Origin: Actinomycetota bacterium
Lineage (GTDB): Bacteria > Actinomycetota > Acidimicrobiia > Acidimicrobiales > Ilumatobacteraceae
Length of the DNA stretch: 34,711 nucleotides
Reading direction: 5' to 3'
Assembly (NCBI GenBank): GCA_041173945.1
Contig: JBEDHS010000037.1
Coordinates: 1-34,711 of the forward strand
Shown here: one piece after another, positions 2,058 to 34,711 of the stretch
How the letters are laid out: each line of letters starts with the position of its first letter
Numbering within the stretch: position 1 is the first letter of the stretch
The notes under the pieces: generated by a model
Told to the model about the DNA's origin: nothing
The model's input: the letters and a program-made list of their open reading frames with translations, nothing else
Databases searched by the model: none
Translations under genes and position numbers: made by a program

Positions 2058-4106
2058 TTGCCTATTGGTGTCTTTGAAACAGATCTCAATTGCCGCGTGG
2101 TGTCTGCAAATGATGCATTCCGTTCTCTTGTTCTCGCTGGCGGACCTGTCGCACCGGGAATCGCACCATGGGCAAATGCGCTACCGCACGAACGTACTGA
2201 GTGTGAAAAACAATGGGCACAACGCGAGTCTCCACACGAACCTTTTCGCATTGAGTTTCGCATCGGACTACCCACGGGCGAATCAGCATGGATTGCGGTC
2301 ACAATTCAACCCACCCTCGTCGATGGCGTGTTAACGGGTTATCTCGGCACCGCACTCGATGTCACATCATCGACTGACCAACGTCAGCTCTCAGAACAAC
2401 TCGTCGCACTCCTTGACGTCTCTGGTGATGCAGTGGTTGTTTTTAACCGAGTGGGCGATGTTGTTTTTTCTAACGACACTGCTCATTCGCTGATTGGTGT
2501 CGCTCACCCTTCCACTCGCGATGATGTCGCATCCCGCACGTTTATGCAGGCGGTGCGCGATCAACTCCCCCGCCTTCTTCTCGACCCGGCTGCACCAACG
2601 GGTTCACCGAATAGATGGGATGGCGAAATCGGATTTCGTTCGCCAGATGGATTGGCTCGCGTGCTCCATGTAGTTGTCCAGGTGGTGCGCAATGCAGACG
2701 GCAGTATTCAACACTGGGCAACAATCAGCCGCGATATCACCGAACAACGTCAGGCCCAAGCCGAACTTGCGCGCCAAGCAACTCACGATGCACTGACCGG
2801 GTTACCCAACAGAGTTTTGTTCTTGCGCAAAACAACCGAAGCCCTCGAGCGAAGCAGAACCACCCATGCATCTGTCGGCGTGTTGTTCATCGACCTCGAC
2901 AAGTTAAAGCACGTCAATGACACCATCGGTCATGCCGTGGGCGATCAACTGATTGTGACTATTGCGCGCAGACTTGCCGCCGCTACTCGCCCGAGCGATC
3001 TTGTCGCACGAATCAGTGGCGATGAATTTGTTGTTTTGTGCGAAGGCCTTTTGGATGAACACGTCGCAATCGACGTTGCCGAACGCATTCGAACCGCAAT
3101 CACCGGGCCCTTGGTGCTGCAAGGAGTGGAAATTGAAGCGGGCGCAAGCATCGGAGTAGCGATGTCGACTCCGGATTTGATGACATCACAATCTGCTGCA
3201 GACGCTGCAGTCACATTGCTGCGATCAGCAGACACTGCGATGTACAAAGCAAAACAGCGTGGCCGTGGACGAAGTGAGCTGTACAGCGAAGAAATGCGGC
3301 GTGCCGCACAAGACCGACACACCTTGTCATCGGAATTAGAACAAGCCTTGGCCGCCAACCAATTCAGTGTTGTGTATCAGCCAATCGAATCAGCGCACAC
3401 CGGTCGCATCGTTGCCGCTGAAGCATTGTTGCGATGGAACCACCCAACGCGCGGACTTCTCGCACCGGGCGCATTCTTAGAACTCGCAGATGAATCGGGA
3501 CTCATCGCACCGATCGGCGATTGGGTTCTCGAACAAGGTGCAGCGACGGTGTCGGGATGGGTGCAACAAGGTCTGGTCGAGACAACGACGGCACTGCATG
3601 TCAATGCATCGCGACGCCAACTCTCTGACATCACATTCGTCGATCGTACGATGACAATTCTGCGCACCCACAACATTGAGCCCAGCCAATTAGTGCTGGA
3701 GACATCTGAATCGAATTTGGTTGAGAACAATCCATCTGTCTTGCGCACCGTCAATGCACTCAAGCGTCAAGGAGTCAAGATCGCAGTCGACGATTTTGGA
3801 TCGGGATATTCATCTCTTGCCTCACTGCGCACATTCCCCGCCGACATCTTGAAACTGGACGGCACCTTGGTGCGCGATGTCGGCCGCACAGACGGTGGCG
3901 ACGACCCGATGGTGCGTTCGCTCATTCAATTGGCGCATTCACTGAATTTGACAGTGTGTGCCGAATGGGTGACGACCGAAGACCACATCCAACGCCTCAA
4001 AGTATTGGGATGTGACCTTCTCCAAGGCAATCGCGTTGGAGAAGCAGTCGATGCAGAAAGTTTCGCCGCGAAAATTCGTCGCCAATCAAACGCGCGTCAG
4101 CAATAA
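2058..4106 (+). CDS. PAS-PAS-GGDEF-EAL signalling protein (diguanylate cyclase / c-di-GMP phosphodiesterase)
   Basis: GGDEF-domain features: ALTGLPNR, DLDKLKHVND, an SGDEF motif (3015-3029) and an RPSD I-site (2988-2999). EAL-domain features: YQPI, EALLRW (3420-3428), DDFGSGYSSL and KLDG. The start is TTG at 2058, the first start codon after an in-frame stop at 1968-1970, so the start is uncertain. Confidence 0.9.
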   Translation: MPIGVFETDLNCRVVSANDAFRSLVLAGGPVAPGIAPWANALPHERTECEKQWAQRESPHEPFRIEFRIGLPTGESAWIAVTIQPTLVDGVLTGYLGTALDVTSSTDQRQLSEQLVALLDVSGDAVVVFNRVGDVVFSNDTAHSLIGVAHPSTRDDVASRTFMQAVRDQLPRLLLDPAAPTGSPNRWDGEIGFRSPDGLARVLHVVVQVVRNADGSIQHWATISRDITEQRQAQAELARQATHDALTGLPNRVLFLRKTTEALERSRTTHASVGVLFIDLDKLKHVNDTIGHAVGDQLIVTIARRLAAATRPSDLVARISGDEFVVLCEGLLDEHVAIDVAERIRTAITGPLVLQGVEIEAGASIGVAMSTPDLMTSQSAADAAVTLLRSADTAMYKAKQRGRGRSELYSEEMRRAAQDRHTLSSELEQALAANQFSVVYQPIESAHTGRIVAAEALLRWNHPTRGLLAPGAFLELADESGLIAPIGDWVLEQGAATVSGWVQQGLVETTTALHVNASRRQLSDITFVDRTMTILRTHNIEPSQLVLETSESNLVENNPSVLRTVNALKRQGVKIAVDDFGSGYSSLASLRTFPADILKLDGTLVRDVGRTDGGDDPMVRSLIQLAHSLNLTVCAEWVTTEDHIQRLKVLGCDLLQGNRVGEAVDAESFAAKIRRQSNARQQ

Positions 4107-4116
4107 CAATTTTTCT

Positions 4117-5136
4117 TTACGGCTGTTCCGGCTTGGGGCCCAGTCCTGCAAAGTACGCGAGCAATGAGGTTGATTCGCGTGCAAGTCGAAACGTGAAGAC
4201 GTCGTTCACCATCTCTGAGTCGACAGGAAGTGCATACGACATCGTCTCAGAATCCGCCAATGCGCGCATCTTCTGCCCCATCTTCAACACGTCAAATTCG
4301 CTGTTCACAGTCATGGCAGATGTTGCAGCGTCAATCACGCGATGTGTCTGCATGGGGTTCTCCGCCAAATATTGAGCCGCCTGTTTAGCCAACGTGGTGA
4401 TGAAAGCGCGTTGGCGCTCTCCGCGACCAGTATCGCCGGTGCGATCCATCACCCAATTGCCGTCAATCTTTTCCTCAAAGTATCGAGAACGTGCATACGA
4501 CAGTGCATCTGGACCATCGAGCAACTTGCATCCTGCGCGGCCGATGAAAAATCCTGTCGCTTTGTCACGTGATGGATGTTCAACACAGACATTCACTCCC
4601 CCAATTGCATCAACGATTGCCTTGAAGCCTTGGAAATTAATTTCGACGTAATGGTGAATGGGAATGTTCAGTGCTCGTTGAATTGTCCGCACCAAAATTT
4701 GAGCGCCTTCACTGTACGTCGCATTAACTTTCGCAAATCGTTCTGAATTTCCGATCTTGACGCGCAGGTCTCGTGGAATTGACATCAGCGAAATTTCTCC
4801 ACTGCGACGATCAATACGTGCAACGATCAGTGTGTCTGCACGCATCCCCGGTGTTGCTTCTTCAGAGCCTGTCGACAAATAATCGGCATCGTTAGGATCT
4901 GCACCCGCGCGAGAGTCCGACCCAACCAGCAAGACATTTTCGACTTCTTCAGACGGCGGCGACAAGGCCTCAGCCACAATCACATTTCGCGCGATCTTGT
5001 CCAACTGCCCATTGGCTGCTTGCACGATTCCTAATGCTCCTGCCAACGAAACCACGAGTGCCACAGCAACAATCCACATCCACCGCGGCGCACCGGTGAC
5101 ACGCGAAATGTTTCGGTCAGCAAACACGCCTACCAC
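4117..5136 (-). CDS. LCP (LytR-CpsA-Psr) family cell-wall glycopolymer ligase
   Basis: N-terminal TM anchor followed by LLVGSDSRAG...RADTLIVARIDRRSGEISLMSIPRDL...INFQGFKAIVDAIGGV. GTG start, 5 nt downstream of the birA stop. Confidence 0.9.
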   Translation of the reverse strand: MVGVFADRNISRVTGAPRWMWIVAVALVVSLAGALGIVQAANGQLDKIARNVIVAEALSPPSEEVENVLLVGSDSRAGADPNDADYLSTGSEEATPGMRADTLIVARIDRRSGEISLMSIPRDLRVKIGNSERFAKVNATYSEGAQILVRTIQRALNIPIHHYVEINFQGFKAIVDAIGGVNVCVEHPSRDKATGFFIGRAGCKLLDGPDALSYARSRYFEEKIDGNWVMDRTGDTGRGERQRAFITTLAKQAAQYLAENPMQTHRVIDAATSAMTVNSEFDVLKMGQKMRALADSETMSYALPVDSEMVNDVFTFRLARESTSLLAYFAGLGPKPEQP

Positions 5137-18379: not shown

Positions 18380-20131
18380 CTACATCAGTTCAAATCGTTG
18401 TTGCCATGCAGCATCGCTGACCATCTCGGGATACTTCTCGCGGTAGGCCTTCTTCAACGATTTATACGTACGCAACAATTGCCACGTGGTTGCGAAAACC
18501 TCTTTTTGAATACGTACAAATCTCTCCGGATCACGCTCACACATAAAACCTTCATCAAACCGAGGATGACGATACAGAATCCGATCATGGCGGATGGCTA
18601 ATCCGACTGCACGCAAATCAATCTGAGCAACACCAATTTTTTGTGTTCGCATAAATGACGGCATCCATCTTCCCCCGCCGAAAAATGGCGAGAACATAAA
18701 GCCGATAAGGCGAACAGACTTTCGTTTTGTGGGAGAAAATCCCAACTTCACGAGATCCTCCGACAAAGGTGAGGCTTTTTCTTCATTCACCTGACGCAGT
18801 TGATCATGTTTAGCAGCATGGTCAATCTTCATCCATTCATCGGGTCCAGCAAGAAAATCCTTCATTCCCCAAATCATGTATTCAGCACTGGCGTACCGGT
18901 GAGAATACGCATTGCGGAATCCGAATCCGAGATAACGCCACGCCAGATGCCAACGCGTGTGCTTATCAAACACCAACGTGTCAATAAGAGCAAAGTTACG
19001 CAATTCGTAGTACAGAGAGTTCGGATTGTTCTTTAGGGCAAAATCGGCGTGCCACACAGCAATTCCATGCAATGTCACCGTGTGTTTGCCTGTGTGCATC
19101 AATCCGAACGCCACGTCATCGCCGCGAACGAACACGGGAAGTGGATTGTCCTTGGCAATGTGCATGGGAAACACGGTGAACCACCACGCAGAGTAGGCCA
19201 TCTCAGGTTCAGGCTGATCGCGCAGAATCTCTTCACGTTGGCGAAGATCAACACCGCGTCCATATGCCCTCAACGGATACACCGAGCGAAACTCGTATTC
19301 CGACCCTGCCTCGAACTGCATCCAAGGAAACTCTTCGCTCATCATCGCGCCATGGACACACAAGTCCTCCGAGCGCGCAAAAGTCAACAACGAGATTGTG
19401 CGCAAAATTGATTCGGGCTCAAGCGAGATGTCATCGTCCATGAACACCACGTGCGTGCTCCACCCTGCATTGCGGAATTCAATCAACCCTCGAGCAAAGC
19501 CACCCGCTCCCCCCAGGTTGGGATTCGGTAAAACAGTGACAGGGGCACCATCGGGAATATTTGGCGCAAGATTTCGCGCATTATCCACGACAAGAACCTG
19601 CATATGACCCTTAACGCTTGAAATTGTGGATTCAATTTCAATCAACTTGTCGATAGTGGCCAGAACATATTCCTGGCGATTAAACGTGGTGATCGCAACT
19701 CCGAGATGAACATCACGCACGGGAGATGTGGAAGTTTGCCATTCGCCCGTACGCACGATCACGTTGTCAGCCAATGCTGTCACTGTGACATACATCGATT
19801 CACAATCGAGCACTGCAAGATTCGGACAACAGACGGAATTTTCCGTATCAGTGGAATCAATCACCGTGTCAACGCCAGCTGTATGTGCCACCAAATCAAT
19901 GCGGCACGACCCTTGCACATCCATAGAGGCCACAAGGTCAGTGATGGTACTGAGACGCTTCCATCGAGCGACCGAGAAAACACCAAACGCGGTATCAAAC
20001 GACACGCGGTCACCAATCGACAGACGCACACCCTCGTTTGTCAGTACTCCCCTGTCAGTTCGCACATACAGAGTCGGATCAGAAAACGTCGGCGATGGGA
20101 TCTGGATCCGAGCAAGGGGATGAAGACTCAC
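18380..20131 (-). CDS. glfT2: GlfT2-like galactofuranosyltransferase (GT-A fold, family 2-like)
   Basis: N-terminal VSFDTAFGVFSVARWKRL...DVQGSCRIDLV resembles the GlfT2 beta-sandwich domain. GT-A core ITTFNRQEYV...VVDNARN...FMDDDISLEP with a DDD motif. Starts 10 nt downstream of the glf stop, the same order I recall for Mycobacterium tuberculosis glf-glfT2. GTG start. Confidence 0.75.
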   Translation of the reverse strand: MSLHPLARIQIPSPTFSDPTLYVRTDRGVLTNEGVRLSIGDRVSFDTAFGVFSVARWKRLSTITDLVASMDVQGSCRIDLVAHTAGVDTVIDSTDTENSVCCPNLAVLDCESMYVTVTALADNVIVRTGEWQTSTSPVRDVHLGVAITTFNRQEYVLATIDKLIEIESTISSVKGHMQVLVVDNARNLAPNIPDGAPVTVLPNPNLGGAGGFARGLIEFRNAGWSTHVVFMDDDISLEPESILRTISLLTFARSEDLCVHGAMMSEEFPWMQFEAGSEYEFRSVYPLRAYGRGVDLRQREEILRDQPEPEMAYSAWWFTVFPMHIAKDNPLPVFVRGDDVAFGLMHTGKHTVTLHGIAVWHADFALKNNPNSLYYELRNFALIDTLVFDKHTRWHLAWRYLGFGFRNAYSHRYASAEYMIWGMKDFLAGPDEWMKIDHAAKHDQLRQVNEEKASPLSEDLVKLGFSPTKRKSVRLIGFMFSPFFGGGRWMPSFMRTQKIGVAQIDLRAVGLAIRHDRILYRHPRFDEGFMCERDPERFVRIQKEVFATTWQLLRTYKSLKKAYREKYPEMVSDAAWQQRFELM

Positions 20132-20141
20132 CTGTCTAGTT

Positions 20142-21290
20142 TCACAGGGGCTGGACCACCAACGGTGTCATTGGACGAGAGTCACGCCGGCAGGCAAGAA
20201 ATTCAGCCGCTACATCGAGGGCTTCTTTAATGGTCACGTCCATGTCGAGATAGCGATAGGTGCCAAGACGGCCCAAAAACGTGACGTTCTGGGCACGACG
20301 AGCTGCCTCGACATATTGCACCAGTTGCTCTTTTTCCTTCACCAGACGAATCGGGTAGTACGGAATGTCGCCGACTTCAGCCAAGCGGCTGTATTCGGTG
20401 TACAAGGTCGTGCCTTCATGGTGTTCCCATGGCGCGAAGTGCTTGTGCTCGGTGATGCGCGTATATGGAACATCGAGATCGCAATAATTCATTACCGGAC
20501 ACCCTTGAAAGTCACCATCTGCTTGGGACTCAACAAAGTCCAACGTGCGATAGCCCAGGCGACCGTATCTGTGGCCGAAATATTCATCGATTGGTCCGGA
20601 CCAAAACACATGCTCTGCAGTTGCGAGGTCAGCGGGTTGCAGAGTTTTATTCAATGTCACGTCGATTAGTGGATGATCCAACATCGCCTCGACAATCGGG
20701 GTGTACCCGTCACGTGGAATGGCTTGATACGGATGGTTGAAGTAACTGTCTTCGTAGGAAAACCGCACGGGAAGCCGCGCGAGAATTGAAGCCGGCAATT
20801 CCGTAGGCGACATTCCCCATTGTTTTTGTGTGTAGCCCTTAAAAAACGCTTCGTATAACTCTGGTCCCACAAATTTCAAGGCCTGGTCTTCAAATGTGAC
20901 GGGCGTACCGATGCTGGAATCTGCGCGAGCAGCAATGAACTCTTGTGCCTGTTGTGGCGACAAAGTCAAACCAAAAAACTGATTGATGGTGTGAAGATTC
21001 ACCGGCAACGAATACACGCTTCCTTGCGTCGTTGCTTTAACGCGATGGTTGTAACGCTCCATCGCACCGAACTTGTTGATGTAGTCCCACACGTGGGTGT
21101 GCTCGGTGTGAAATATGTGAGGTCCATACACATGCACCATGACACCGTTTTCACGACGTTCGGTGTGGGCATTTCCCGCCACATGCGATCGCCCATCAAC
21201 AACCCACGAGGCGATTCCTGCTTCAGCTAGTTCTCGCGCGACCACAGCACCGGAAAACCCGGCACCCACGATCACAATTGAGGCTGTCAT
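20142..21290 (-). CDS. glf: UDP-galactopyranose mutase
   Basis: IVIVGAGFSGAVVARELAE FAD fold, HVYGPHIFHT, YTQKQWG and YPIxxxxE-type motifs. 382 aa. Confidence 0.92.
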   Translation of the reverse strand: MTASIVIVGAGFSGAVVARELAEAGIASWVVDGRSHVAGNAHTERRENGVMVHVYGPHIFHTEHTHVWDYINKFGAMERYNHRVKATTQGSVYSLPVNLHTINQFFGLTLSPQQAQEFIAARADSSIGTPVTFEDQALKFVGPELYEAFFKGYTQKQWGMSPTELPASILARLPVRFSYEDSYFNHPYQAIPRDGYTPIVEAMLDHPLIDVTLNKTLQPADLATAEHVFWSGPIDEYFGHRYGRLGYRTLDFVESQADGDFQGCPVMNYCDLDVPYTRITEHKHFAPWEHHEGTTLYTEYSRLAEVGDIPYYPIRLVKEKEQLVQYVEAARRAQNVTFLGRLGTYRYLDMDVTIKEALDVAAEFLACRRDSRPMTPLVVQPL

Positions 21291-24810: not shown

Positions 24811-25635
24811 CTAAATAGTGTTGGTTGCGATTAACGCTGCAGTTGTTGCGGCAATCCCGATGCGATACCAACCAAATATCGCTAGCGATCGACTCCCCAG
24901 ATACGACACCATCCAGCGCACTGCAATAATTGCGGTCACACATGCAGTAGCAATTCCGACAAGCGGTGTCATCAACCCGAACATCTCGACCAACTGGTCG
25001 CCATGGCGCGCCGTGTCAAAAATGGTGGCTGCGCTCAAGGTGATGAGACCGAGAAGAAAACTAAATTCGATAGCTGCAGATAATGACAACCCGACTAACA
25101 GACCGGCGAGAAGAGTCACCAAACTTCGACTGACGCCGGGCCATAAAGCAATGACCTGGGCAACGCCAATAATCGCTGCCGACTTAAGTGGTATCTGGTG
25201 TAGCGCAATATTTCCTGAACGCGGTGTCCACGCAAGGAGCAACACTCCACCAACGAACCACGCGATAGTGATGGGCACTGGTCCGAATAATGCATCTTTA
25301 ATGGCATCTCCGAACACGACCCCCGCAAGCGCAGCGGGAAGAAATGCCACGCAGAGCGCCCCGACAACATGTCGACCATCATCATCACGACCTGCCACCC
25401 CTCGCAACATCGACACGACACGCGTTCGATACAACCCGAGCACCGCCAAAATTGCACCGAATTGAATGGCAATGGCATAGGTATCTGCGGCTTGTTGTGC
25501 ATCGCCTTCTGCAAAACCAATGAGATCTGACACCACGAGCAGATGACCGGTCGATGACACAGGGAGAAATTCGGTAATCCCCTCCACGATTCCCAAAAGA
25601 ATTGCTTCGGGCAACGATAAAAGACTTGCAAACAC
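24811..25635 (-). CDS. uppP: undecaprenyl-diphosphate phosphatase
   Basis: GIVEGITEFLPVSSTGHL and PGVSRS motifs. 274 aa, polytopic. GTG start. Confidence 0.92.
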   Translation of the reverse strand: MFASLLSLPEAILLGIVEGITEFLPVSSTGHLLVVSDLIGFAEGDAQQAADTYAIAIQFGAILAVLGLYRTRVVSMLRGVAGRDDDGRHVVGALCVAFLPAALAGVVFGDAIKDALFGPVPITIAWFVGGVLLLAWTPRSGNIALHQIPLKSAAIIGVAQVIALWPGVSRSLVTLLAGLLVGLSLSAAIEFSFLLGLITLSAATIFDTARHGDQLVEMFGLMTPLVGIATACVTAIIAVRWMVSYLGSRSLAIFGWYRIGIAATTAALIATNTI

Positions 25636-26872: not shown

Positions 26873-29578
26873 TCACGGTGTCGATGGAACCCACACCTGC
26901 AGTTGACGCAGATCGCCCGCGTGAGGAACCCGCTCGCGAGACAAGACAACAGATTGCCCTGGTCGCAACACTGTTCCTGCAGGAACACGAGCCGACATAG
27001 TCGGTACTTCGACTCCGGAGATGTCAATCACCACGGTGTCGGTATTTGTGATTGTCACAAGATCTGTGCCCGTCAATGTGTAGGAGATGGTGTCACTTTG
27101 TGGGCCCGGTAGTCGTGGCGACGCAGGACCTGTCAGCAAATCACGTTTAGGTTTTACATAGTTGTCGATCAAGATCTGTTGTGCTTGCTGAATGGTCTGT
27201 CTTTGACCATAGGTGGACCACCTCTGGCGATCTAATACAGCATCATCACGCAGGATCGCCTCTAATTCAGAGATTCGTTTCTCGAGATATCCGTCAGCAA
27301 GATAGAGATCTGCCAGCGTCTTGGTTCGACGATCGAGCATCTCACGTAATTCGGGAGTCTTTAAAAATAGCCTGCCCAGGCGATTTCCTTCCATGTATTC
27401 CATATAGGCGGTCGCCGACACCGTGTCACACACTGCATTGCACCCGCCTACCCATTGACGACCAAAATTCAAATCGAAGTCAATCGGTACAAGTCGCCAT
27501 TTTTGATCGGCCGGATCAAACAGCAACATGTGATTTTTGTGCTCCCATTCCAGATGTTGAGCCACCCGCATCGTTGCCAAAGCTTCAATAATTTGCGGAA
27601 TATCAAGATGTTTGTAGGCGAAATCGAGAAGTTCTTTTTCATTCTCGTTGTTGACTTGACGAATTAAGTCTCGCACTTCATCGACATGCTCTAACCAACG
27701 TTGTGATCGCCGTTGATACCGCTGACGCATCTCGCTATTGGGTAGATCAAGATGACTGAGACGCAACGTGGCTTGTCGGTCCGATTTAAAAACAACGGTG
27801 TCGCGGGAAAATCCGAATTTTTCGCGCCATTGACCATCGGGTTGCTCTTGATACAGATACAACCCAAAGAACTCATTGTTCTTCTCAAGTCGTAGAGGAA
27901 ATACCTGTTGTGCAATGCCCCCACCAAGCTTCTGCAATTCGCTTGTCAAAATTTCACGAACAAACGATTTGTCGGTGAACGACGAATTCAATGCAAACTC
28001 ATTAACAGGGTTCGCCAGTAACCCTCCGAGAGTGGTTTCGTATCCCGCTGGCAGGACGACTTTCCATTTCTTTTTGGGGTTCAAGCGTGATTGATTTCCA
28101 CGCATTCGGATCTTTGCACCGTCGAACACTTCCCCATCGAATGCAAGAACGGTGGGGTACCCATTGTCGCCATAAAGTCCTGGGTCATTAAAAATCTGTG
28201 AGTAATAGTCATCTTCAACGAACCATTGCATGCGCGGCAGCGAACTGTCGTTTTCTGGTTGCACCACTGTCCCGCGGTACACCATTCCATCTCCCATGCG
28301 TGGCCACGTTCCCGCGGTCGCGTCATTGGTACTTAACAACTTGTACCGCACCAATGAACCTGCTGCTTGCGCGGGGATGGTTGCGCTATACACACCAGAG
28401 GTCGTTGCACGCATTGCCACGTCGACATCGTTGTCAAACCCAATCTTGTAGGTCAACGTCGGATCTCCACCATCACGCACCATGGCAGTCACTGTCATGT
28501 CCTGCGTCGCAGTTGGCGACACCGTTGCCGACACATTTTCAAACATGGGTAGATACGACTGTGTCCACGCCATAGCGCCCTTTATGCCAGGGGATGGGTC
28601 CCCTCCATCCCAGTTCCCTGGTTCAGTCCCCCACAGTTGTTCATTTCGTCGATGTAGTGACCAACCATGTCCATCGGCAAGTGCAGGCCATAATCCGCTG
28701 TCTTCGTAATAGACCACATCAACGATGTTTTTTTGTTCATCAACCAGTCGCAGTACTCCGCGGCTGTTACTCAGCTCGACCTGTGAATCGTTTGGCGTGA
28801 CCACGAACGAAGATCCAGGCTCGAGAACAGGAGCGTCATCGAAGCAACGGTTGATCTCTACAAGACACCACCGTGATAATGAAACAGATTGAGACGACAC
28901 ATTTGTGAGTTCAATGAATTCTTCGGCGGGATTGTCGTTTTCCGAGTGATAGTGAATCTCGCTGACCACAATTGTCGACTGACGCAACTCTCCTCTGAAT
29001 TCAGCGTCATACACCACACCAGGAGATGGCACATCGTCAATCCACGCACTCGCGGCACTTCCCTCGGACTGAGCGGAAGGCATTGTTGTCGCGGTCGTTG
29101 TCGTTGAAAGTTCAGGCTCGCCACGGCGGATGCGATGCAGCGATCGCCCACGCCCATCAGTCATGATCGGCCATGGCGCACTATCTGAATACGACACTTC
29201 ATCTATCACGTCGCCCACGGCATTTTTCAACTGCAGCGTCTCGCCAGAATTGCTGAATTTGCCCTCAACATCGCTCCCTGCCACGACACGCACCGCGCCT
29301 GCTTCCAGTACGGAACTTTCGTCAAAACAGAAATCGACCCCACTCAGACACCATCGGTCAAGCGAGACCTCCCCGTCACCTGCGTTATGAATCTCAACAA
29401 AATCGAGCGAGTCATCGTCGGAGACATCGTGATAATTCACTTCCGAGATGTAGACATCTGCACGCGGTCGATCACCATCAAGTGTCGGCGTTGGTACGTC
29501 GAGATAGGTAGCGACCCCGACAGCTGAACCAAGTATCGATACCAACAGCACCCATGTCCACTTGGATTTTCGCGTCAC
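26873..29578 (-). CDS. secreted CotH kinase-family protein with two N-terminal and one C-terminal lamin-tail-like domains (CotH-A)
   Basis: N-terminal signal anchor. LTD-like repeats: ISEVNYHD..FVEIHN..WCLSGVDFCF..SYSDSAPWP..GRSLHR and VSEIHYHS..FIELTN..WCLVEINRCF..YYEDSGLWP..GWSLHR. CotH core: KWKVVLPAGY...NEFALNSSFTDKSFVRE...FPLRLEKNNEFFGLYLYQEQPDGQW...HKNHMLLFDPADQKWRLVPIDFDLNFG. GTG start. Confidence 0.85.
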   Translation of the reverse strand: MTRKSKWTWVLLVSILGSAVGVATYLDVPTPTLDGDRPRADVYISEVNYHDVSDDDSLDFVEIHNAGDGEVSLDRWCLSGVDFCFDESSVLEAGAVRVVAGSDVEGKFSNSGETLQLKNAVGDVIDEVSYSDSAPWPIMTDGRGRSLHRIRRGEPELSTTTTATTMPSAQSEGSAASAWIDDVPSPGVVYDAEFRGELRQSTIVVSEIHYHSENDNPAEEFIELTNVSSQSVSLSRWCLVEINRCFDDAPVLEPGSSFVVTPNDSQVELSNSRGVLRLVDEQKNIVDVVYYEDSGLWPALADGHGWSLHRRNEQLWGTEPGNWDGGDPSPGIKGAMAWTQSYLPMFENVSATVSPTATQDMTVTAMVRDGGDPTLTYKIGFDNDVDVAMRATTSGVYSATIPAQAAGSLVRYKLLSTNDATAGTWPRMGDGMVYRGTVVQPENDSSLPRMQWFVEDDYYSQIFNDPGLYGDNGYPTVLAFDGEVFDGAKIRMRGNQSRLNPKKKWKVVLPAGYETTLGGLLANPVNEFALNSSFTDKSFVREILTSELQKLGGGIAQQVFPLRLEKNNEFFGLYLYQEQPDGQWREKFGFSRDTVVFKSDRQATLRLSHLDLPNSEMRQRYQRRSQRWLEHVDEVRDLIRQVNNENEKELLDFAYKHLDIPQIIEALATMRVAQHLEWEHKNHMLLFDPADQKWRLVPIDFDLNFGRQWVGGCNAVCDTVSATAYMEYMEGNRLGRLFLKTPELREMLDRRTKTLADLYLADGYLEKRISELEAILRDDAVLDRQRWSTYGQRQTIQQAQQILIDNYVKPKRDLLTGPASPRLPGPQSDTISYTLTGTDLVTITNTDTVVIDISGVEVPTMSARVPAGTVLRPGQSVVLSRERVPHAGDLRQLQVWVPSTP

Positions 29579-29600
29579 AGACCGATTGTACAGAGGCGAC

Positions 29601-29606
29601 TACTAT
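29601..29606 (+). promoter_or_regulatory. candidate -10 box (TACTAT) in the 39-bp divergent gap upstream of the DUF4956 gene
   Basis: Fits TANNNT and lies 11 nt upstream of the ATG at 29618. Confidence 0.3.
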
Positions 29607-29617
29607 GTGAACTCAGC

Positions 29618-30184
29618 ATGAACGACCTCGATCTGACCACCCTCATACAAGATTTTTCAATTAACGCGGTAGCGATTGTGCTTCTTGCTTATGTCATCTA
29701 TTACCGCCGGCACCGACGCCGAGAAACCACGGTCGGCTATATCGCCACCAACGTCAGCTTGTTCGTTGTCGCAGCAGCTCTCTCTTCATCTACAACCTTG
29801 AACGTCGGTGTCGGTTTCGGACTTTTCGCGGTGCTCTCCATTGTTCGTCTACGATCAGATGAAGCCACCCAATCTGAAATCGGATACACCATGGTGGCAC
29901 TCGTCATCGGACTCATGACTGGTCTTCCTAGTCTTGACGTTGAGATCAAGATCGTGTTTTCAATTTTGTTGGTAGCAACCATGTACATCGTTGACCATCC
30001 ACGACTTATCAAATCACGTCGGTATCAGAGACTTCTCGTGGAATTAGACCGCATCATCACCGACGAAGATGAACTTCATGCAGTCGTGGGTAAACAAATC
30101 GGCTCGCCTGTCCAGAGTCTGTCAGTACAAAAGATTGACTTCGTACGAGAAACCATGTCGCTCATCGTGCGCGCTCATTCATAA
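29618..30184 (+). CDS. DUF4956-family integral membrane protein
   Basis: 188 aa with four to five hydrophobic segments, including GFGLFAVLSIVRLRS, plus a soluble C-terminal tail. This layout is typical of DUF4956 proteins that pair with VTC-domain proteins. Confidence 0.8.
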   Translation: MNDLDLTTLIQDFSINAVAIVLLAYVIYYRRHRRRETTVGYIATNVSLFVVAAALSSSTTLNVGVGFGLFAVLSIVRLRSDEATQSEIGYTMVALVIGLMTGLPSLDVEIKIVFSILLVATMYIVDHPRLIKSRRYQRLLVELDRIITDEDELHAVVGKQIGSPVQSLSVQKIDFVRETMSLIVRAHS

Positions 30185-30942
30185 TGAATGAGCTTTTTAA
30201 TTTCGCCACGATTGATCTGACCGAGCTCAACGCCCAGGCCGAACTCCTACGGCGGTTCGACACAAAATATCTTGTTGAAGTCTCGAAATTGCCTGAGATG
30301 TATGGCGCTTTACCCGAGACCACGCTGGTGCTCCGCAATCGCGATGTTCTCAGTGCCCCGTACACAACCACCTATTACGACACAAGCGAACTTCAGACGT
30401 ACTACGACCACCTCAAACAACGTCGGAAGCGATTCAAAATTCGCACTCGCTTCTACAGCGAACCTCACGATGGTTACTTGGAGATAAAGATTAAAAAACC
30501 TCGGGGGCAAACCGAAAAAGTGCGCTGGCATCTTGACGTACCAACTATTGGCGAGACTCTGTCACCTCTGCACTACACATTGCTGAATGGGGCATTGACA
30601 TCTGCGCGATATCCGGCGCTTCACGGCGATTATTACAACACCGTGCAAACCCTATTCACTCGAACGACATTGTTCGACCCCGTCTCGCGCGAGCGAATTA
30701 CCGTCGATACCGACTTTGATGTGCATTCACAGATTCAGCAATTACGTCTTGGACCGCACCATGCGATTGTTGAAATCAAGTCACCCACAAAAGTCGGTCG
30801 CACACACCGCATCTTCACATCACTGGGAATTCGACCAATCAGCCTCAGCAAATATTGCCTCGCGATGACCGCATTACGACCCGATTTGGGTGGAACTCCG
30901 TGGCGAGAAGCACTACGCATAATGGGTACAACGCGTCCTTGA
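30184..30942 (+). CDS. VTC-domain (polyphosphate-polymerase-like, triphosphate-tunnel fold) protein
   Basis: 252 aa. RRFDTKYLV, TTYYDT, RRKRFKIRTRFY, YLEIKIK and AIVEIKSP are alternating basic beta-strands characteristic of the VTC/CYTH tunnel. The ATG overlaps the upstream stop (TAATG). Confidence 0.8.
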   Translation: MNELFNFATIDLTELNAQAELLRRFDTKYLVEVSKLPEMYGALPETTLVLRNRDVLSAPYTTTYYDTSELQTYYDHLKQRRKRFKIRTRFYSEPHDGYLEIKIKKPRGQTEKVRWHLDVPTIGETLSPLHYTLLNGALTSARYPALHGDYYNTVQTLFTRTTLFDPVSRERITVDTDFDVHSQIQQLRLGPHHAIVEIKSPTKVGRTHRIFTSLGIRPISLSKYCLAMTALRPDLGGTPWREALRIMGTTRP

Positions 30943-30986
30943 CACATTTCCTGATTGCGAATATCGATAAACGATCCCAAACCAAT

Positions 30987-31062
30987 TGGCACTCCCAACG
31001 GGATTCGAACCCGTGCCGCCACCTTGAGAGGGTGGTGTCCTAGGCCACTAGACGATGGGAGC
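30987..31062 (-). tRNA. tRNA-Glu (anticodon CUC), CCA-encoded
   Basis: Minus-strand sequence GCTCCCATCGTCTAGTGGCCTAGGACACCACCCTCTCAAGGTGGCGGCACGGGTTCGAATCCCGTTGGGAGTGCCA. It folds as a cloverleaf with a 7-bp acceptor stem (G1-U72), anticodon stem CCACC/GGTGG, anticodon loop CTCTCAA, and T-arm CGGGTTCGAATCCCG. Confidence 0.9.
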
Positions 31063-31093
31063 CTGTAGCGGATTTCCACGCTACCAGTGCCAT

Positions 31094-33754
31094 TTAGTCG
31101 TTTGCGACTGGTTCTATGGCGGCGTAGATGTCGTTATTGGTGACGTCTCCGCGTGGGACTCTCCCGCTGGTCAGAACGACTGATTGGCCAGGCAACAGAA
31201 CCACCCCGGGCGGTACTCGACCCTCTAGTGAGTCAATTCGTATGCCAGAGAGATCAATCGATGTCACGTCTGTGTTGGTAAGGCGAACCTGACCTGATTG
31301 AGAGTCGTCAACGCGGTATAACACAGTATCTGTTTGTCGCAAGGGCAAATATTTCTCGTCGTCGCGAATGTAGTACCACCGCTTCGGTTGCGCGTATGCC
31401 TCGACAATTAAGTCTTGTGCCTCTTTCAATGTCTGCCGAATTCCATACTGAATCCACTTCTCTTTGTCGAGAATCGCATCCACTTCCATTTCTGCGTGAA
31501 GTTGCTGCAACCGACTTTCAATAATTCCCTCTGTCAAAAATGCATCAGAAAGTGTCCGTGTCCGTCTATCGAGTAATTCGCGAAACTCAGGCACCTTCAC
31601 AAAACTGCGGGTAAATCGATTCGCTTGCATATATGTGAGATACGGATTGGCGAACACTTCGTCACACCGTGATTTACACCCAGCAGTCCACTTTTTACCG
31701 AAATTCAAGTCATGATCTATCGCCTGAAATCTCCATTTTTCGTCTCGTGGATCGAAAAACAACATCCAGTTCTTATGTTCCAATTCCACATGCTGAGCCA
31801 CCCGAGCCACAGCTAACGCATTCACCACTTGAGGAATATCCACATGTTTGTAGATGAACTCGGTGACTTTGCTTTCTTCCTGATTGAGTTGCTGAATCAA
31901 CCACCGCATCTCATCCTGATTGAAGTCGTATTTTTGAGTCTGACGGCGATAGTCAATGTTCATCTGTTCATCAGTGCGATTCAGATGCGCAGTCTTGAGC
32001 GTTGAGATTCGCTCGCCTTTAATAGCAACGACGTCGTCACTGAATCCGTATTTATCTCGCCATTTTCCGTCGGGCTGTTCGTGGTACAGATACAAACCGT
32101 AGAACTCATTATTCAGTTCCAATCGGAGGGGAAACACCTGCTGAGCCATTCCCCCGGCCACTTTCTGCAGGTCATATGTCAACAATTCGCGCGAATACGA
32201 CTTGTCGGTCAACATCGAATGCAACCCGAATTCATTAATCGGGGTCTCGATGAGGCCTTTCATGTCCCACTCATATCCAGCAGGCAAAGTCACTTTATAT
32301 TTGTTCTTATCTCTCCCCCTCGACTCTTGACCCTTCACACGAATCAGAGCGTTATCGATGATTTCACCGTCATATGCGAAAACAGCAGGAAATCCGGTGT
32401 CGCCGAACAAATCTCTCTTGCTGTTGTTCATCGCCGAAATGTTTTGCGGATCCATAAACCACTGCAATCGCGGCAGAGGTGAAGCATCTGGCGCCTTCAC
32501 GACAGTTCCCCCATATAGGGCGCCGTCACCTTGTCGTGGCCATTGGCCGACAACCGTGTCATTACCTCCGGAGAGGCGAAAACGAATCAAGGTTCCTGCA
32601 TCTGAGCCCGGGATTGACGCAGTCCAGTTTTGTGAGTCACTCTTCGTCATTTCAATAGTGACTTCTTCATTGAATCCGTATCGGTAATGAAGTTGTGCAG
32701 CTGAGATTTCAGGATTTGTTGCCGTCACCGAAACCGTCTGCATGGGTAAAGGCGACTGCGTGAATGTCACCTCTGTGAATAATGCGAGAGAATCGACGCC
32801 TACGGCGTCAAATGCTTTTCCCGGGGTGGGTTCTCCCGACATCCAATGCGCCGGTGAATCTCCCCGCAGCGATGGACGTATTCGCTGGAGAGAGTGTCCA
32901 TGTCCGTCCGCAAGTGCGGGCCATGGACCAGAGTCTGAATACTTGACGACGTCATGAGTTTCATTGACATCATCGACCAGCTGGAGTGTCTGCCCACCAT
33001 TTCCGAGAGACACGCCATGAGACAGGCCCGACACAACGAGAAAACCATGTGGTTCAATGACATCGCTGGCTGTAAAACACGCGTTAGAACCCGACATACA
33101 CCAACCGTTCAATGCGAGTGCTTGCGAGGTTTGATTGTGCAGTTCCACAAAGTCCGCGACCGGATTTCCATCAAGGGCGTTGTACAAAATCTCGGTCATC
33201 ACAACTTTTGGACTCTTCGTCATCGACAATCCGGTTCCCTCTACAAATTCTTCTCCTGGTGAAGGTGGCGCGGCACTCCAGTTGTCCGCATTGTTACCGT
33301 CGCTATTTAAGTCTTTTCGATGCAATGAATCACCGTCACCATCGGCGGACTCAGGCCAAGGATCAGAATCTGCATAGGTAACTTCGTCCCGAACATTGTC
33401 TTGGGCGTCGACAAGTCGAATTCGTTCTCCTTTGTTGCCCATACGACCAGAGAAACTCTTCCCATAGACAACGAAGTATTCATTTGGTTCAAGAACCGTC
33501 ACATCTGTGAAGCAGAACCCAACACCTTTGATACACCATCCCGTTAATGCGACAGGTTCGTTGTGAACGTTGACAATCTCCACAAAATCGTCTGCGTCGC
33601 TATCGGTGGCGGCGTGATAGTAAATCTCAGATAAAAGCACCTGACGTTCAACTGAAGTTTCTGCCGAATCTTGGGTCGATTCTGAACACGCACTCATCAC
33701 AACTACCAATAATCCGCAAGAAAACAGCGAGACCAGCGAATGTCGTAATTTCAT
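31094..33754 (-). CDS. secreted CotH kinase-family protein with lamin-tail-like domains, probable lipoprotein (CotH-B, paralogue of 26873-29578)
   Basis: Signal peptide with a lipobox-like VVVMSA|C. Collinear with CotH-A: SEIYYHA..FVEIVN..WCIKGVGFCF, TEILYNA..FVELHN..WCMSGSNACF, KYKVTLPAGY, NEFGLHSMLTDKSYSRE, FPLRLELNNEFYGLYLYHEQPDGKW and HKNWMLFFDPRDEKWRFQAIDHDLNFG. ATG start. Confidence 0.85.
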   Translation of the reverse strand: MKLRHSLVSLFSCGLLVVVMSACSESTQDSAETSVERQVLLSEIYYHAATDSDADDFVEIVNVHNEPVALTGWCIKGVGFCFTDVTVLEPNEYFVVYGKSFSGRMGNKGERIRLVDAQDNVRDEVTYADSDPWPESADGDGDSLHRKDLNSDGNNADNWSAAPPSPGEEFVEGTGLSMTKSPKVVMTEILYNALDGNPVADFVELHNQTSQALALNGWCMSGSNACFTASDVIEPHGFLVVSGLSHGVSLGNGGQTLQLVDDVNETHDVVKYSDSGPWPALADGHGHSLQRIRPSLRGDSPAHWMSGEPTPGKAFDAVGVDSLALFTEVTFTQSPLPMQTVSVTATNPEISAAQLHYRYGFNEEVTIEMTKSDSQNWTASIPGSDAGTLIRFRLSGGNDTVVGQWPRQGDGALYGGTVVKAPDASPLPRLQWFMDPQNISAMNNSKRDLFGDTGFPAVFAYDGEIIDNALIRVKGQESRGRDKNKYKVTLPAGYEWDMKGLIETPINEFGLHSMLTDKSYSRELLTYDLQKVAGGMAQQVFPLRLELNNEFYGLYLYHEQPDGKWRDKYGFSDDVVAIKGERISTLKTAHLNRTDEQMNIDYRRQTQKYDFNQDEMRWLIQQLNQEESKVTEFIYKHVDIPQVVNALAVARVAQHVELEHKNWMLFFDPRDEKWRFQAIDHDLNFGKKWTAGCKSRCDEVFANPYLTYMQANRFTRSFVKVPEFRELLDRRTRTLSDAFLTEGIIESRLQQLHAEMEVDAILDKEKWIQYGIRQTLKEAQDLIVEAYAQPKRWYYIRDDEKYLPLRQTDTVLYRVDDSQSGQVRLTNTDVTSIDLSGIRIDSLEGRVPPGVVLLPGQSVVLTSGRVPRGDVTNNDIYAAIEPVAND

Positions 33755-33794
33755 TAGAGAGATACCTTAATCAGTCACCCCGGAGTGAGGCTTC

Positions 33795-34711
33795 TTACAT
33801 TTGTATTTCTTCTTGTCTATTGTTCTGGCGCTTTTTCCATGTCGCGCCCCCGCCAACGATGAGGAGCAGCAACAGCAACACGAGCAGAAGTCGTGTGCCA
33901 CCAACACCAGGGACATTCAAGAAACTATTGCCATCATCACCACGAGTATCAGATGAATCGCCGCTATCTATATTGCCGTCATTAACTGTGATGCCATCGT
34001 CAACTGCATCGTCAACTACATCGTCATTTCCGTCAACGGCAGGTACAACAATCGATGATGTTCCTGAATCCTTTTTCGAGGTCTTCTTCTTCGGTTTTGC
34101 CTTCTCAACAGGTGCGTCAATGGCAGGCTGATCAATGACAGGTTCCTCCACCACTGGAGCTGGCGACACAGCAACGGACACTGTGTTCGTCGCAGCAATG
34201 AAGCGACCAGACGCAGTCTTTGTTGCCTCGATGATGCATTCGCCCACTGCAAGTGCGGTCACAGTGTTGTCATCTGCGAGTGAACAAATTTCTGGAGTTA
34301 ACGAGATTGCACTCAATACACCATCACCATCTCCACCAGAGATTGAGAGCAATGTGGTCTGACCCACAGTTAGTGCAGGCAATCCAGTGCTCATCTCAAT
34401 CGGTATCGCTTGCGGAGCGAGAGCGCCAAACATGCTCAGATGACGAGTCAGTACCCATAGGTCACCGTCGGCATCAATGTAGTAACCGTCTTCAACTCCG
34501 TCTGGCAATACAGCACTGTCTAACCTGTTCATAAGTCGCCAGGTTGCTCCGTTATCACCTGAGTACACCGGTGCTGAGTCGATCGCAGGACGAGCAAGCT
34601 TGATGCGAACTGGGACGTTCAAATTAGTGACACGCGAACCGTCCTCATTTTCAGCCGTCAGTCGAACCATGCGATATCCGGCCGGAACGTGTTCAGACAT
34701 AAGTGCAGTTG
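33795..34711 (-). CDS. Big_2 (bacterial Ig-like) domain surface protein with a Lys/Ser-rich and poly-Asp tract and a C-terminal TM anchor (probably 5'-truncated by window edge)
   Basis: Big_2-like LTVGQTTLLSISGGDGDGVLSAISLTPEICSLADDNTVTALAVGECIIEATKTASG. Followed by EKAKPKKKTSKKDSGTSS, a D-rich tract and then LLLVLLLLLLIVGGG-WKKRQ. The frame stays open from the ATG at 34700 to the window end, and there is no signal peptide after that ATG. Confidence 0.65.
   Translation of the reverse strand, partial: TALMSEHVPAGYRMVRLTAENEDGSRVTNLNVPVRIKLARPAIDSAPVYSGDNGATWRLMNRLDSAVLPDGVEDGYYIDADGDLWVLTRHLSMFGALAPQAIPIEMSTGLPALTVGQTTLLSISGGDGDGVLSAISLTPEICSLADDNTVTALAVGECIIEATKTASGRFIAATNTVSVAVSPAPVVEEPVIDQPAIDAPVEKAKPKKKTSKKDSGTSSIVVPAVDGNDDVVDDAVDDGITVNDGNIDSGDSSDTRGDDGNSFLNVPGVGGTRLLLVLLLLLLIVGGGATWKKRQNNRQEEIQM

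Follow-up and report, generated by a model that had tools for sequence, protein, structure and literature searches.

The contig JBEDHS010000037.1 of a bacterium of the Ilumatobacteraceae (Actinomycetota; assembly GCA_041173945.1), whose entire 34,711 bp are referred to here as the window, encodes proteins of three families: a membrane protein of the DUF4956 family, a VTC-domain protein, and two proteins with a CotH kinase fold, CotH-A and CotH-B. Comparison with related loci indicates, at the level of sequence, that the three families belong to one functional module: lineages with different gene orders still have them together, and natural fusions exist. The working model, which we put forward tentatively and with somewhat less than even confidence, is a three-component membrane-spanning system in which polyphosphate (polyP) would be made inside the cell, conducted by DUF4956 and used by CotH outside.

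Conservation of the linkage

The linkage was studied in 80 metagenome loci picked on DUF4956, supplemented by tblastn searches of plasmids and by contig look-ups; a scan of the genome collection with a narrower VTC alignment yielded 10 loci. A search for homologues of the CotH kinase domain returned 17 close relatives only, and the diversity of CotH was drawn from the loci instead. The VTC gene stood directly after the DUF4956 gene in every sampled locus with enough sequence (61/61), CotH was present in 24/24 loci with adequate flanks and, when lineages were collapsed at 80% identity, in 19 of the 22 informative clusters. Together with the natural fusions described below, these counts show that the CotH/VTC/DUF4956 neighbourhood, put forward as a system in a first-pass annotation of the window made from the sequence alone, is conserved far beyond chance. 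The triad occurs in Actinomycetota, Deinococcota, Bacteroidota and, by literature, Firmicutes.

At least four arrangements were encountered: divergent, co-directional with 4-bp overlaps, with a convergent or tandem second CotH copy, and fused. Within the Ilumatobacteraceae, CotH-A was divergent from DUF4956-VTC in every related locus that included this flank, and the second CotH gene was convergent after VTC (as in the window), tandem to CotH-A, or absent. Co-directional DUF4956-VTC-CotH operons with 4-bp overlaps were found in Egicoccus halophilus, in an Acidimicrobiales metagenome-assembled genome (MAG) and on a contig rich in SLH proteins; the flanks of these three operons are unrelated, the operon of Egicoccus halophilus lying after groESL. 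Flanking genes were unrelated between lineages in general, and clustering of the flanking ORFs revealed no recurrent fourth family, pel genes included. Flanking families that seemed to recur in 7 lineages were discarded as antisense shadow ORFs or ABC ATPases.

The gene set itself is not new. Whitfield et al. 2020 described accessory genes that adjoin the pel operons of Gram-positive bacteria, namely streptococci, clostridia and bifidobacteria: cotH and the genes for a polyP polymerase, DUF4956 and DUF4832 (PMC7112168); and NELoc-2 of Clostridium perfringens likewise has VTC and CotH genes. All three genes have been deleted in Streptococcus intermedius (SIR_1592-1594), with mild phenotypes (mBio 2025, PMC12345266). 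The grouping had been taken in the first-pass annotation as uncharacterised; this is no longer tenable for the gene set, published and genetically dissected as it is, and still holds for its biochemical function, none being reported for the module in the literature searched. According to the authors of the deletion study, their analysis revealed no such synteny away from pel loci (PMC12345266). The window locus and at least 19 similar lineages have the triad with no pel genes nearby, which contradicts that statement. Families of the pel type were missing from positions 1-26,800 of the window, in which only 3.8 kb is available beyond VTC, and no pel genes were found in the 10-kb flanks of loci L002, L004 and L018-L021. 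The DUF4832 hydrolase was likewise not among the Pfam matches of the window or of these flanks. In the literature searched, the Pel-independent distribution appears to be new, as do the VTC-linker-CotH fusions, the Glu-type catalytic loop of CotH, and the recognition that DUF4956-VTC is a core shared across phyla whose phosphoryl-transfer partners are interchangeable.

Natural fusions and membrane topology

In three loci (L085, L086 and L092) a single ORF joins VTC to CotH through a hydrophobic linker, and in each of them the DUF4956 gene is directly upstream. Both domains of the L085 fusion were recognized by Pfam (VTC, 5e-18; CotH, 4e-37). L085 is near-identical to L086, so the three fusions represent two distinct lineages. 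Hydrophobic segments were scored on the Kyte-Doolittle scale. The linker of L085/L086 (aa 286-317) scores as a membrane helix (2.49), whereas that of L092 is weaker, being Ala-rich and under the threshold used. A membrane helix in this position places the VTC and CotH domains on opposite sides of the membrane, and the N-terminal hydrophobic segment of CotH-A matches the position of this helix. N-terminal hydrophobic segments are present also in the aligned CotH orthologues of Egicoccus, the Acidimicrobiales MAG and L021. Moreover, the CotH ectodomains have three conserved Cys pairs, when VTC has a single Cys and DUF4956 lacks Cys altogether, and a CotH orthologue of Bacteroidota carries a T9SS secretion tail. 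N-terminal signals, Cys pairs and linker helix thus agree in placing CotH outside, exported or anchored, as had been predicted. Read in this way, the sequences indicate that VTC is inside and CotH outside, the two being physically associated at the membrane.

The VTC protein

The match to the VTC family (PF09359) scored 88.2 bits, against a cut-off of 23. The protein consists of the VTC domain only, with neither an SPX domain nor a hydrophobic segment, and we classify it as a predicted stand-alone triphosphate-tunnel (TTM) protein of the Vtc4 type, soluble and cytoplasmic; the cytoplasmic location assigned to it earlier is in line with these features. A profile built from 30 homologues identified the catalytic domain of Vtc4 among Protein Data Bank entries (3g3q, E 6.8e-7), with a better score than the inactive Vtc2/3. 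The AlphaFold model (pLDDT 92.9) gave the same ranking with Foldseek: the top match was Vtc4 (3g3r, E 9e-12, TM 0.66), with Vtc2/3, ygiF and ThTPase behind.

The invariant residues R24, K28, R87, R89, E100 and K102 align with R196, K200, R264, R266, E279 and K281 of Vtc4. Vtc4 E426 falls outside the aligned stretch, and E197 is only its positional candidate. Another invariant residue of the bacterial family, D26, sits where Vtc4 has T198. The Vtc4 variant R264A/R266A/E426N is catalytically impaired (PMC9911596). In Streptomyces qinglanensis (L017 9665-10738) a VTC-domain gene was found with neither DUF4956 nor CotH nearby, showing that the tunnel protein can occur alone.

The DUF4956 protein

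DUF4956 (PF16316; 155.5 bits, cut-off 30.6) is the best conserved of the three proteins (close relatives share 89% identity) and belongs to a family of 1,430 clusters at the 50% identity level. The AlphaFold model (pLDDT 75.8) has five helices followed by a beta-alpha-beta-beta (ACT-like) tail, and this model and the positive-inside charge pattern support the earlier description of a multi-spanning membrane protein. From the charge pattern the N-terminus is predicted to be outside and the C-terminus, with the tail, in the cytoplasm; the loops RRHRRR and RLRSDE are on the predicted cytoplasmic side. The R-x-R of the invariant core motif (Table 1) is retained even in a Bacteroidota homologue of 23% identity.

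A fold search with the model gave no match below E 0.1, only weak matches to ACT domains, and matched it neither to the membrane chains of Vtc1/3/4 (7ytj, 8i6v) nor to any solved transporter. Homology to the Vtc1/3/4 channel was rejected on this ground and the comparison kept as an analogy. Homology to MgtC was also rejected: Pfam MgtC was matched by 0/41 DUF4956 members at E<=10.

The CotH proteins

CotH-A and CotH-B scored 132.2 and 108.6 bits, respectively, with the CotH family (PF08757; cut-off 23.8), and are collinear paralogues with 45% identity over their full length. CotH-A consists, in this order, of an N-terminal signal or anchor, two LTD domains, an Ig/CBM-like middle part, the CotH kinase fold and a C-terminal LTD-like domain; Pfam recognized LTD in 3 stretches. 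CotH-B has an identical domain order and is a paralogue of the lipoprotein type. The export signals claimed for both proteins could be traced: the hydrophobic segment of CotH-A is a predicted signal peptide or type II membrane anchor, and CotH-B has a lipoprotein-type signal, which fits the PROSITE-type lipobox pattern.

The kinase-like motif IDxDLNFG, also predicted for both proteins, reads IDFDLNFG in CotH-A and IDHDLNFG in CotH-B. The catalytic loop of CotH-A is E677-W-E-H-K-N682, and its metal-binding motif I-D700-F-D702-L-N-F-G is the equivalent of Asp251 of B. subtilis CotH (roles of D228 and D251 from PMC7821199). In one alignment of CotH homologues (A4) N682, D700 and D702 are invariant. 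The catalytic Asp (B. subtilis Asp228) is absent from both proteins and is replaced by Glu (E677 in CotH-A, E657 in CotH-B); the alignment to 5jd9 is free of gaps at this point. The same E-N-D-D pattern was found in 67/84 triad-linked CotH sequences, which identifies the Glu as a feature of the clade rather than a sign of decay. The CotH proteins of the co-directional operons retain the canonical Asp, and those of the soil and fusion clade have Asp together with Ser instead of the loop Asn.

Third partners of the DUF4956-VTC core

At least four phyla share the DUF4956-VTC core; the third partner changes between phyla. Deinococcus taeanensis has the triad (annotated as CotH/polyP polymerase/DUF4956), and in another Deinococcus a HAD acid phosphatase and phnDCE are located beside the DUF4956-VTC pair. 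In Alphaproteobacteria the third partner is a phytase-like esterase, with or without a Pi transporter, and PAP2 is the third gene of an overlapping operon in L109 (6218-7027). VTC-DUF4956-DUF2490 is preceded in L108 by a pair of CotH genes, of which one carries a T9SS Por_Secre_tail. We take the third-partner families other than CotH to act outside the cytoplasm. The third partner is repeatedly a phosphoryl-transfer enzyme, mostly exported or of a family acting outside the cytoplasm. Among the circumstantial evidence, this pattern speaks most strongly for a phosphate polymer delivered outwards.

Other gene contexts were recorded as well. Plasmids of Alphaproteobacteria (L102, L104, L105 and L106; hosts Aminobacter, Shinella and Nitratireductor) have an operon of DUF4956, polyP polymerase and 'esterase-like activity of phytase' with no CotH; in Nitratireductor a Pi transporter is inserted, and in 3/4 of these loci an ECF sigma/anti-sigma pair and an S8 peptidase are upstream. 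Bacteroidota (L108 3546-10019; L006 10001-12398) have the order VTC-DUF4956-DUF2490, DUF2490 showing a faint outer-membrane beta-barrel signal. The Bacteroides thetaiotaomicron genes BT3498-99 (DUF4956 and DUF2490) are listed in an iron-deficiency transcriptome table with a fold change of -7.6 (P = 0.175; PMC10434189). In a soil clade of Actinomycetota a gene for a Hanks-type Ser/Thr kinase (Pfam Pkinase, ~1e-30) follows VTC; it is located between VTC and CotH in L091 (4014-5219) and L099 (11326-12210), and downstream of the VTC-CotH fusion, before a second CotH gene, in L085 (9904-10788).

Layout of the locus and its neighbours

The nearest relatives of the window are MAGs of freshwater Ilumatobacteraceae (Acidimicrobiia). 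The five ORFs and the tRNA-Glu(CTC) gene stand, in order and coordinates, where the first-pass annotation had put them (Table 1), and the family assignments of the first-pass annotation to CotH, LTD, DUF4956 and VTC, as well as to the upstream genes uppP (BacA/UppP, 2.3e-65) and acyltransferase-3 (Acyl_transf_3, 1.4e-29), were confirmed by Pfam, all matches being well over the curated thresholds. A search of NCBIfam with all five locus proteins gave zero matches.

Table 1. Features of the CotH/VTC/DUF4956 locus in the window
Feature	Coordinates	Strand	Remarks
CotH-A	26873..29578	-	901 aa; Pfam CotH 4e-38, LTD 2.5e-35
CotH kinase-fold domain of CotH-A	27164..28111	-	aa 490-805; Pfam; aligns to B. 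cereus CotH 5jd9
CotH-A active-site stretch	27461..27550	-	aa 677-706; alignment to 5jd9
CotH-A N-terminal hydrophobic segment	29492..29557	-	aa 8-29, after MTRKSK; Kyte-Doolittle 1.92 over 19 residues
Divergent intergenic region CotH-A/DUF4956	29579..29617		39 bp; two -10-like hexamers
DUF4956 membrane protein	29618..30184	+	188 aa; Pfam 1.4e-45
DUF4956 invariant core motif GVGFGLFAVLSIVRLRSDE	29807..29863	+	aa 64-82; helix 3 and charged cytoplasmic loop (predicted); alignment A3
TAATG stop/start overlap DUF4956/VTC	30182..30186	+	read from sequence
VTC-domain protein	30184..30942	+	252 aa; Pfam VTC 7.8e-25
VTC tunnel residues	30253..30450	+	R24/D26/K28 in strand 1; K85/R87/R89 in strand 4; invariant in 30 homologues
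tRNA-Glu(CTC)	30987-31062	-	neighbour only
CotH-B	31094..33754	-	886 aa; Pfam CotH 6e-31, LTD 5.4e-32
CotH kinase-fold domain of CotH-B	31376..32344	-	aa 471-793; ELEHKN (aa 657), IDHDLNFG (aa 679)
CotH-B lipoprotein signal	33686..33754	-	MKLRHSLVSLFSCGLLVVVMSA-C23; ends VMSA-C23; read from sequence
Last ORF	33795-34700	-	no Pfam match

The 39-bp gap between the divergent genes and the TAATG overlap were both found as described earlier. Two -10-like hexamers were read from the sequence of the gap: TACAAT on the minus strand, 6 nt ahead of the GTG start of CotH-A, and TACTAT on the plus strand, 11 nt ahead of the ATG start of DUF4956. A scan with the promoter consensus called neither hexamer, and the gap contains no Shine-Dalgarno sequence; in keeping with the spacing of the hexamers, the CotH-A and DUF4956 transcripts are probably leaderless or near-leaderless. 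The -35 regions belonging to the two hexamers would fall within the opposite gene. The TAATG overlap suggests translational coupling of DUF4956 and VTC, and most related loci retain an overlap of this kind (TAATG, TGATG, ATGA or GTGA). A perfect 9-bp inverted repeat, GCTCATTCA-TAA-TGAATGAGC, followed by TTTTTAATTT (window 30173-30203), resembles a terminator and coincides exactly with the stop/start overlap. It was ruled out as a conserved regulatory element: the hairpin is missing from related loci and is therefore probably incidental or strain-specific.

The tRNA-Glu gene had been included in the proposed system. Its presence and coordinates stand, and its membership was rejected, since its location relative to the cluster shifts among relatives; the gene is a mere neighbour. 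The tRNA-Glu(CTC) site resembles a hotspot of integration or rearrangement (window 30987-31062; L002 10768-11839; L009 13573-13769). CotH-B lies after the tRNA in the window and before it in L009, and in L002 the tRNA is directly followed by a phage-type integrase and a block of small genes, most of them unannotated and the last one encoding a type I restriction subunit.

The last ORF had been described as a tail-anchored Big_2 protein. This identification (PF02368) was dropped: Pfam assigned no family to the whole ORF at E<=1 or to a 95-aa sub-segment at E<=0.01, and the reading frame is open as far as the contig end, so that the ORF is probably an N-terminally truncated (C-terminal) fragment and the label 'tail-anchored' is unsupported. 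No homologue was found in related loci. The ORF, taken as 33795-34711, contains an Asp-box/BNR-like motif (YSGDNGATW) with a weak sialidase match (E 0.2), a low-complexity stretch that is first Lys-rich and then acidic and Asp/Gly/Asn-rich, and, at the C-terminus, a membrane helix with a basic tail.

BacA/UppP (window 24811-25635; L004 10751-11596) adjoins the module in both arrangements seen in Ilumatobacteraceae. The BacA/UppP and PAP2 families can dephosphorylate undecaprenyl pyrophosphate, and with UppP and PAP2 next to the module a connection with the chemistry of lipid pyrophosphates on the outer side of the membrane is possible. Elsewhere in the window (2058-5136 and 18380-21290) there are cell-wall glycopolymer genes, encoding a PAS-GGDEF-EAL protein beside a LytR-CpsA-Psr ligase and a pair of Glf/GlfT2-like galactofuranosyl-transferase proteins; these do not adjoin the triad. 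The tRNA, the truncated surface protein, UppP and acyltransferase-3 are lineage-specific neighbours only.

Discussion

In the model of a membrane-spanning system, the VTC protein would polymerise the gamma-phosphate of ATP into inorganic polyP inside the cell. VTC and DUF4956 would be made together by translational coupling, and VTC would dock on DUF4956, which, with its arginine-rich cytoplasmic loops and ACT-like tail, would take over the nascent chain and conduct it to the outer face of the membrane. There the membrane-anchored CotH enzymes, two in the window and each with LTD domains, would use this phosphoanhydride supply to modify substrates of the cell surface. Such a supply would overcome the lack of ATP outside the cell, and a polyP export that would feed the outside kinases is plausible. 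We infer the synthesis of polyP by VTC, its translocation through DUF4956, its role as donor or substrate of CotH and the identity of the surface substrates. The more specific version, a bacterial polyP synthase-translocase of VTC and DUF4956 with exported CotH proteins that (poly)phosphorylate envelope proteins or glycans from polyP rather than ATP, we regard as doubtful.

Several observations weigh against the model. TTM hydrolases carry an ExExK motif, which the D26 region of the VTC protein resembles, and the protein may instead be a hydrolase. The Glu in place of the catalytic Asp, and the Ser in place of the loop Asn, mean that the kinase chemistry of the CotH proteins may differ. DUF4956 shows no detectable similarity to the helices of the Vtc1/3/4 channel or to any solved transporter, the model itself being moderately confident, and no DUF4956-VTC fusion was found among long DUF4956 members (up to 427 aa). 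Three lineages have DUF4956-VTC with no CotH and one Streptomyces has VTC alone, and the co-occurrence sample was skewed to Actinomycetota by the search patterns. Finally, deletion of the polyP polymerase gene in S. intermedius had no reported effect (PMC12345266), and a silent deletion would clash with a strict role in donor supply unless PPK compensates.

The module could alternatively serve phosphate economy by depositing a store of polyP in the envelope, outside the cytoplasmic membrane, as yeast VTC does in the vacuole, with a variable third partner (CotH, a phytase-like esterase, PAP2 or an acid phosphatase) that processes or remobilises the polymer; CotH would then anchor or trim polyP or transfer phosphate to a small molecule, and surface proteins would not be phosphorylated. 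We consider this rather unlikely. Phosphorus is often limiting in lakes, and the hosts are freshwater Ilumatobacteraceae from lake metagenomes; the partners in other phyla are hydrolases, a Pi transporter lies within the Nitratireductor operon, phnDCE and an acid phosphatase adjoin the Deinococcus pair, and the catalytic-loop residue is unlike that of the protein-kinase CotH. However, CotH is an established protein kinase fold with the metal-binding DxD and the Asn kept, and the large LTD/Ig-like decorations and the duplicated paralogues suggest macromolecular substrates at the surface.

Similarly unlikely in our view is a regulatory module with no export of polyP, in which DUF4956 would be an MgtC-like membrane sensor with an ACT ligand-binding tail, VTC would make or hydrolyse a cytoplasmic phosphoanhydride signal, and CotH would use released ATP or undecaprenyl pyrophosphate and so tune exopolysaccharide or cell-wall assembly, as proposed for Pel. 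Weak ACT-like structural matches of DUF4956, the Hanks kinase inserted in the soil-clade operon and the hint at lipid pyrophosphates given by UppP beside the cluster in both Ilumatobacteraceae arrangements and by PAP2 in L109 favour it, and LpxT provides a precedent for undecaprenyl pyrophosphate as a donor. Regulation of Pel is also the published proposal: in S. intermedius deletion of DUF4956 raised Pel and lowered aggregation, deletion of CotH lowered both, and deletion of VTC was silent, so that the first two shift Pel in opposite directions (PMC12345266). Against this, neither pel nor other polysaccharide genes are recurrent beside the triad, and DUF4956 members lack a match to Pfam MgtC. 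The obligatory adjacency of VTC and the membrane protein, their coupling and the VTC-TM-CotH fusions fit a physical trans-membrane machine more easily.

That unrelated neighbours were brought together by chance in a cell-envelope region is true of the tRNA, the truncated surface protein, UppP and acyltransferase-3, but as an account of the locus it is extremely improbable, and for the three core families it is already refuted by the comparative data: complete co-occurrence, retention through rearranged gene orders, overlapping stops and starts, gene fusions and the presence of the triad in several phyla.

To our knowledge, neither the way in which bacteria put polyP outside the cytoplasm nor the way in which exported kinase-fold proteins obtain a phosphoryl donor is known. 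The module, small, conserved and genetically compact, is a concrete candidate for both. The presence of the triad with no pel genes in aquatic Actinomycetota implies a role broader than regulation of Pel biofilms, the sole context discussed so far. If the model of a polyP-supplied membrane-spanning system is true, no bacterial system of extracytoplasmic phosphorylation with its own donor supply would precede the module, which would also include the first identified bacterial polyP exporter; VTC would provide a third bacterial route of polyP synthesis beside PPK1 and PPK2, and the coupling of synthesis to membrane transit seen in yeast VTC would not be confined to eukaryotes. If the mechanism fails, what remains is a phosphate-related envelope system that is widespread and uncharacterised.

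Comparison with known systems

MgtC/SapB proteins, with which DUF4956 was compared by the authors of the S. intermedius study (PMC12345266), share the design of a small membrane domain of several helices with an ACT-like domain after it on the cytoplasmic side; they differ in that the MgtC family was not recognized in DUF4956, whose ACT resemblance is confined to weak fold matches. 

Phosphorylation outside the cytoplasm that bypasses cytoplasmic ATP is exemplified by the Fam20C kinases of the secretory pathway and by the periplasmic LpxT, whose donor is undecaprenyl pyrophosphate. These systems share the logic of the model, in which a phosphoryl transfer on the outside requires a dedicated donor supply; their protein families are unrelated to those of the window. 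We know of no example of extracytoplasmic phosphorylation fed by polyP.

With Bacillus CotH (5jd9) the window proteins share the Pfam CotH domain, the metal-binding Asp (DxD) and the Asn of the catalytic loop. The Bacillus enzyme acts in the cytoplasm of the mother cell with ATP on the Ser-rich CotB and CotG, whereas the window proteins are predicted to be exported or anchored, are ~900 aa long, have LTD and Ig-like domains and Glu in place of Asp228, and are linked to a predicted polyP polymerase rather than to cotG/cotB.

The Pel accessory set resembles the window in that the three families are contiguous and CotH is predicted to be secreted; its DUF4956 has also been described as a multi-spanning membrane protein with an intracellular ACT-like tail, and 'phosphate metabolism' has been suggested. 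In contrast to it, the window has neither pel genes nor DUF4832, its CotH is duplicated and divergently transcribed, and the CotH proteins have LTD domains rather than FN3 and Glu at the position of the catalytic Asp.

The yeast VTC complex (Vtc4/Vtc3/Vtc1) couples polyP synthesis to translocation across a membrane, a positively charged path guiding polyP into the channel (3g3q, 7ytj, 8i6v; PMC9911596). The parallel drawn with it in the first-pass annotation holds for the VTC protein, which is closest to active Vtc4 in sequence and in predicted fold, and does not extend to the channel: DUF4956 has no detectable similarity to that of Vtc1/3/4, so that the parallel is one of analogy only. Common to both systems are the tunnel-domain fold with conservation of the alignable basic tunnel residues, the constant pairing with a membrane component and a positively charged cytoplasmic face that could plausibly serve as an entry path. 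The window protein, however, is a separate soluble chain with neither SPX nor a C-terminal membrane domain; its membrane partner is DUF4956, five helices and an ACT-like tail, which by sequence and by the fold search is unrelated to the three-helix subunits of the Vtc1 type; and the destination of the polymer would be the exterior of the cell, whereas in yeast it is the lumen of the vacuole.

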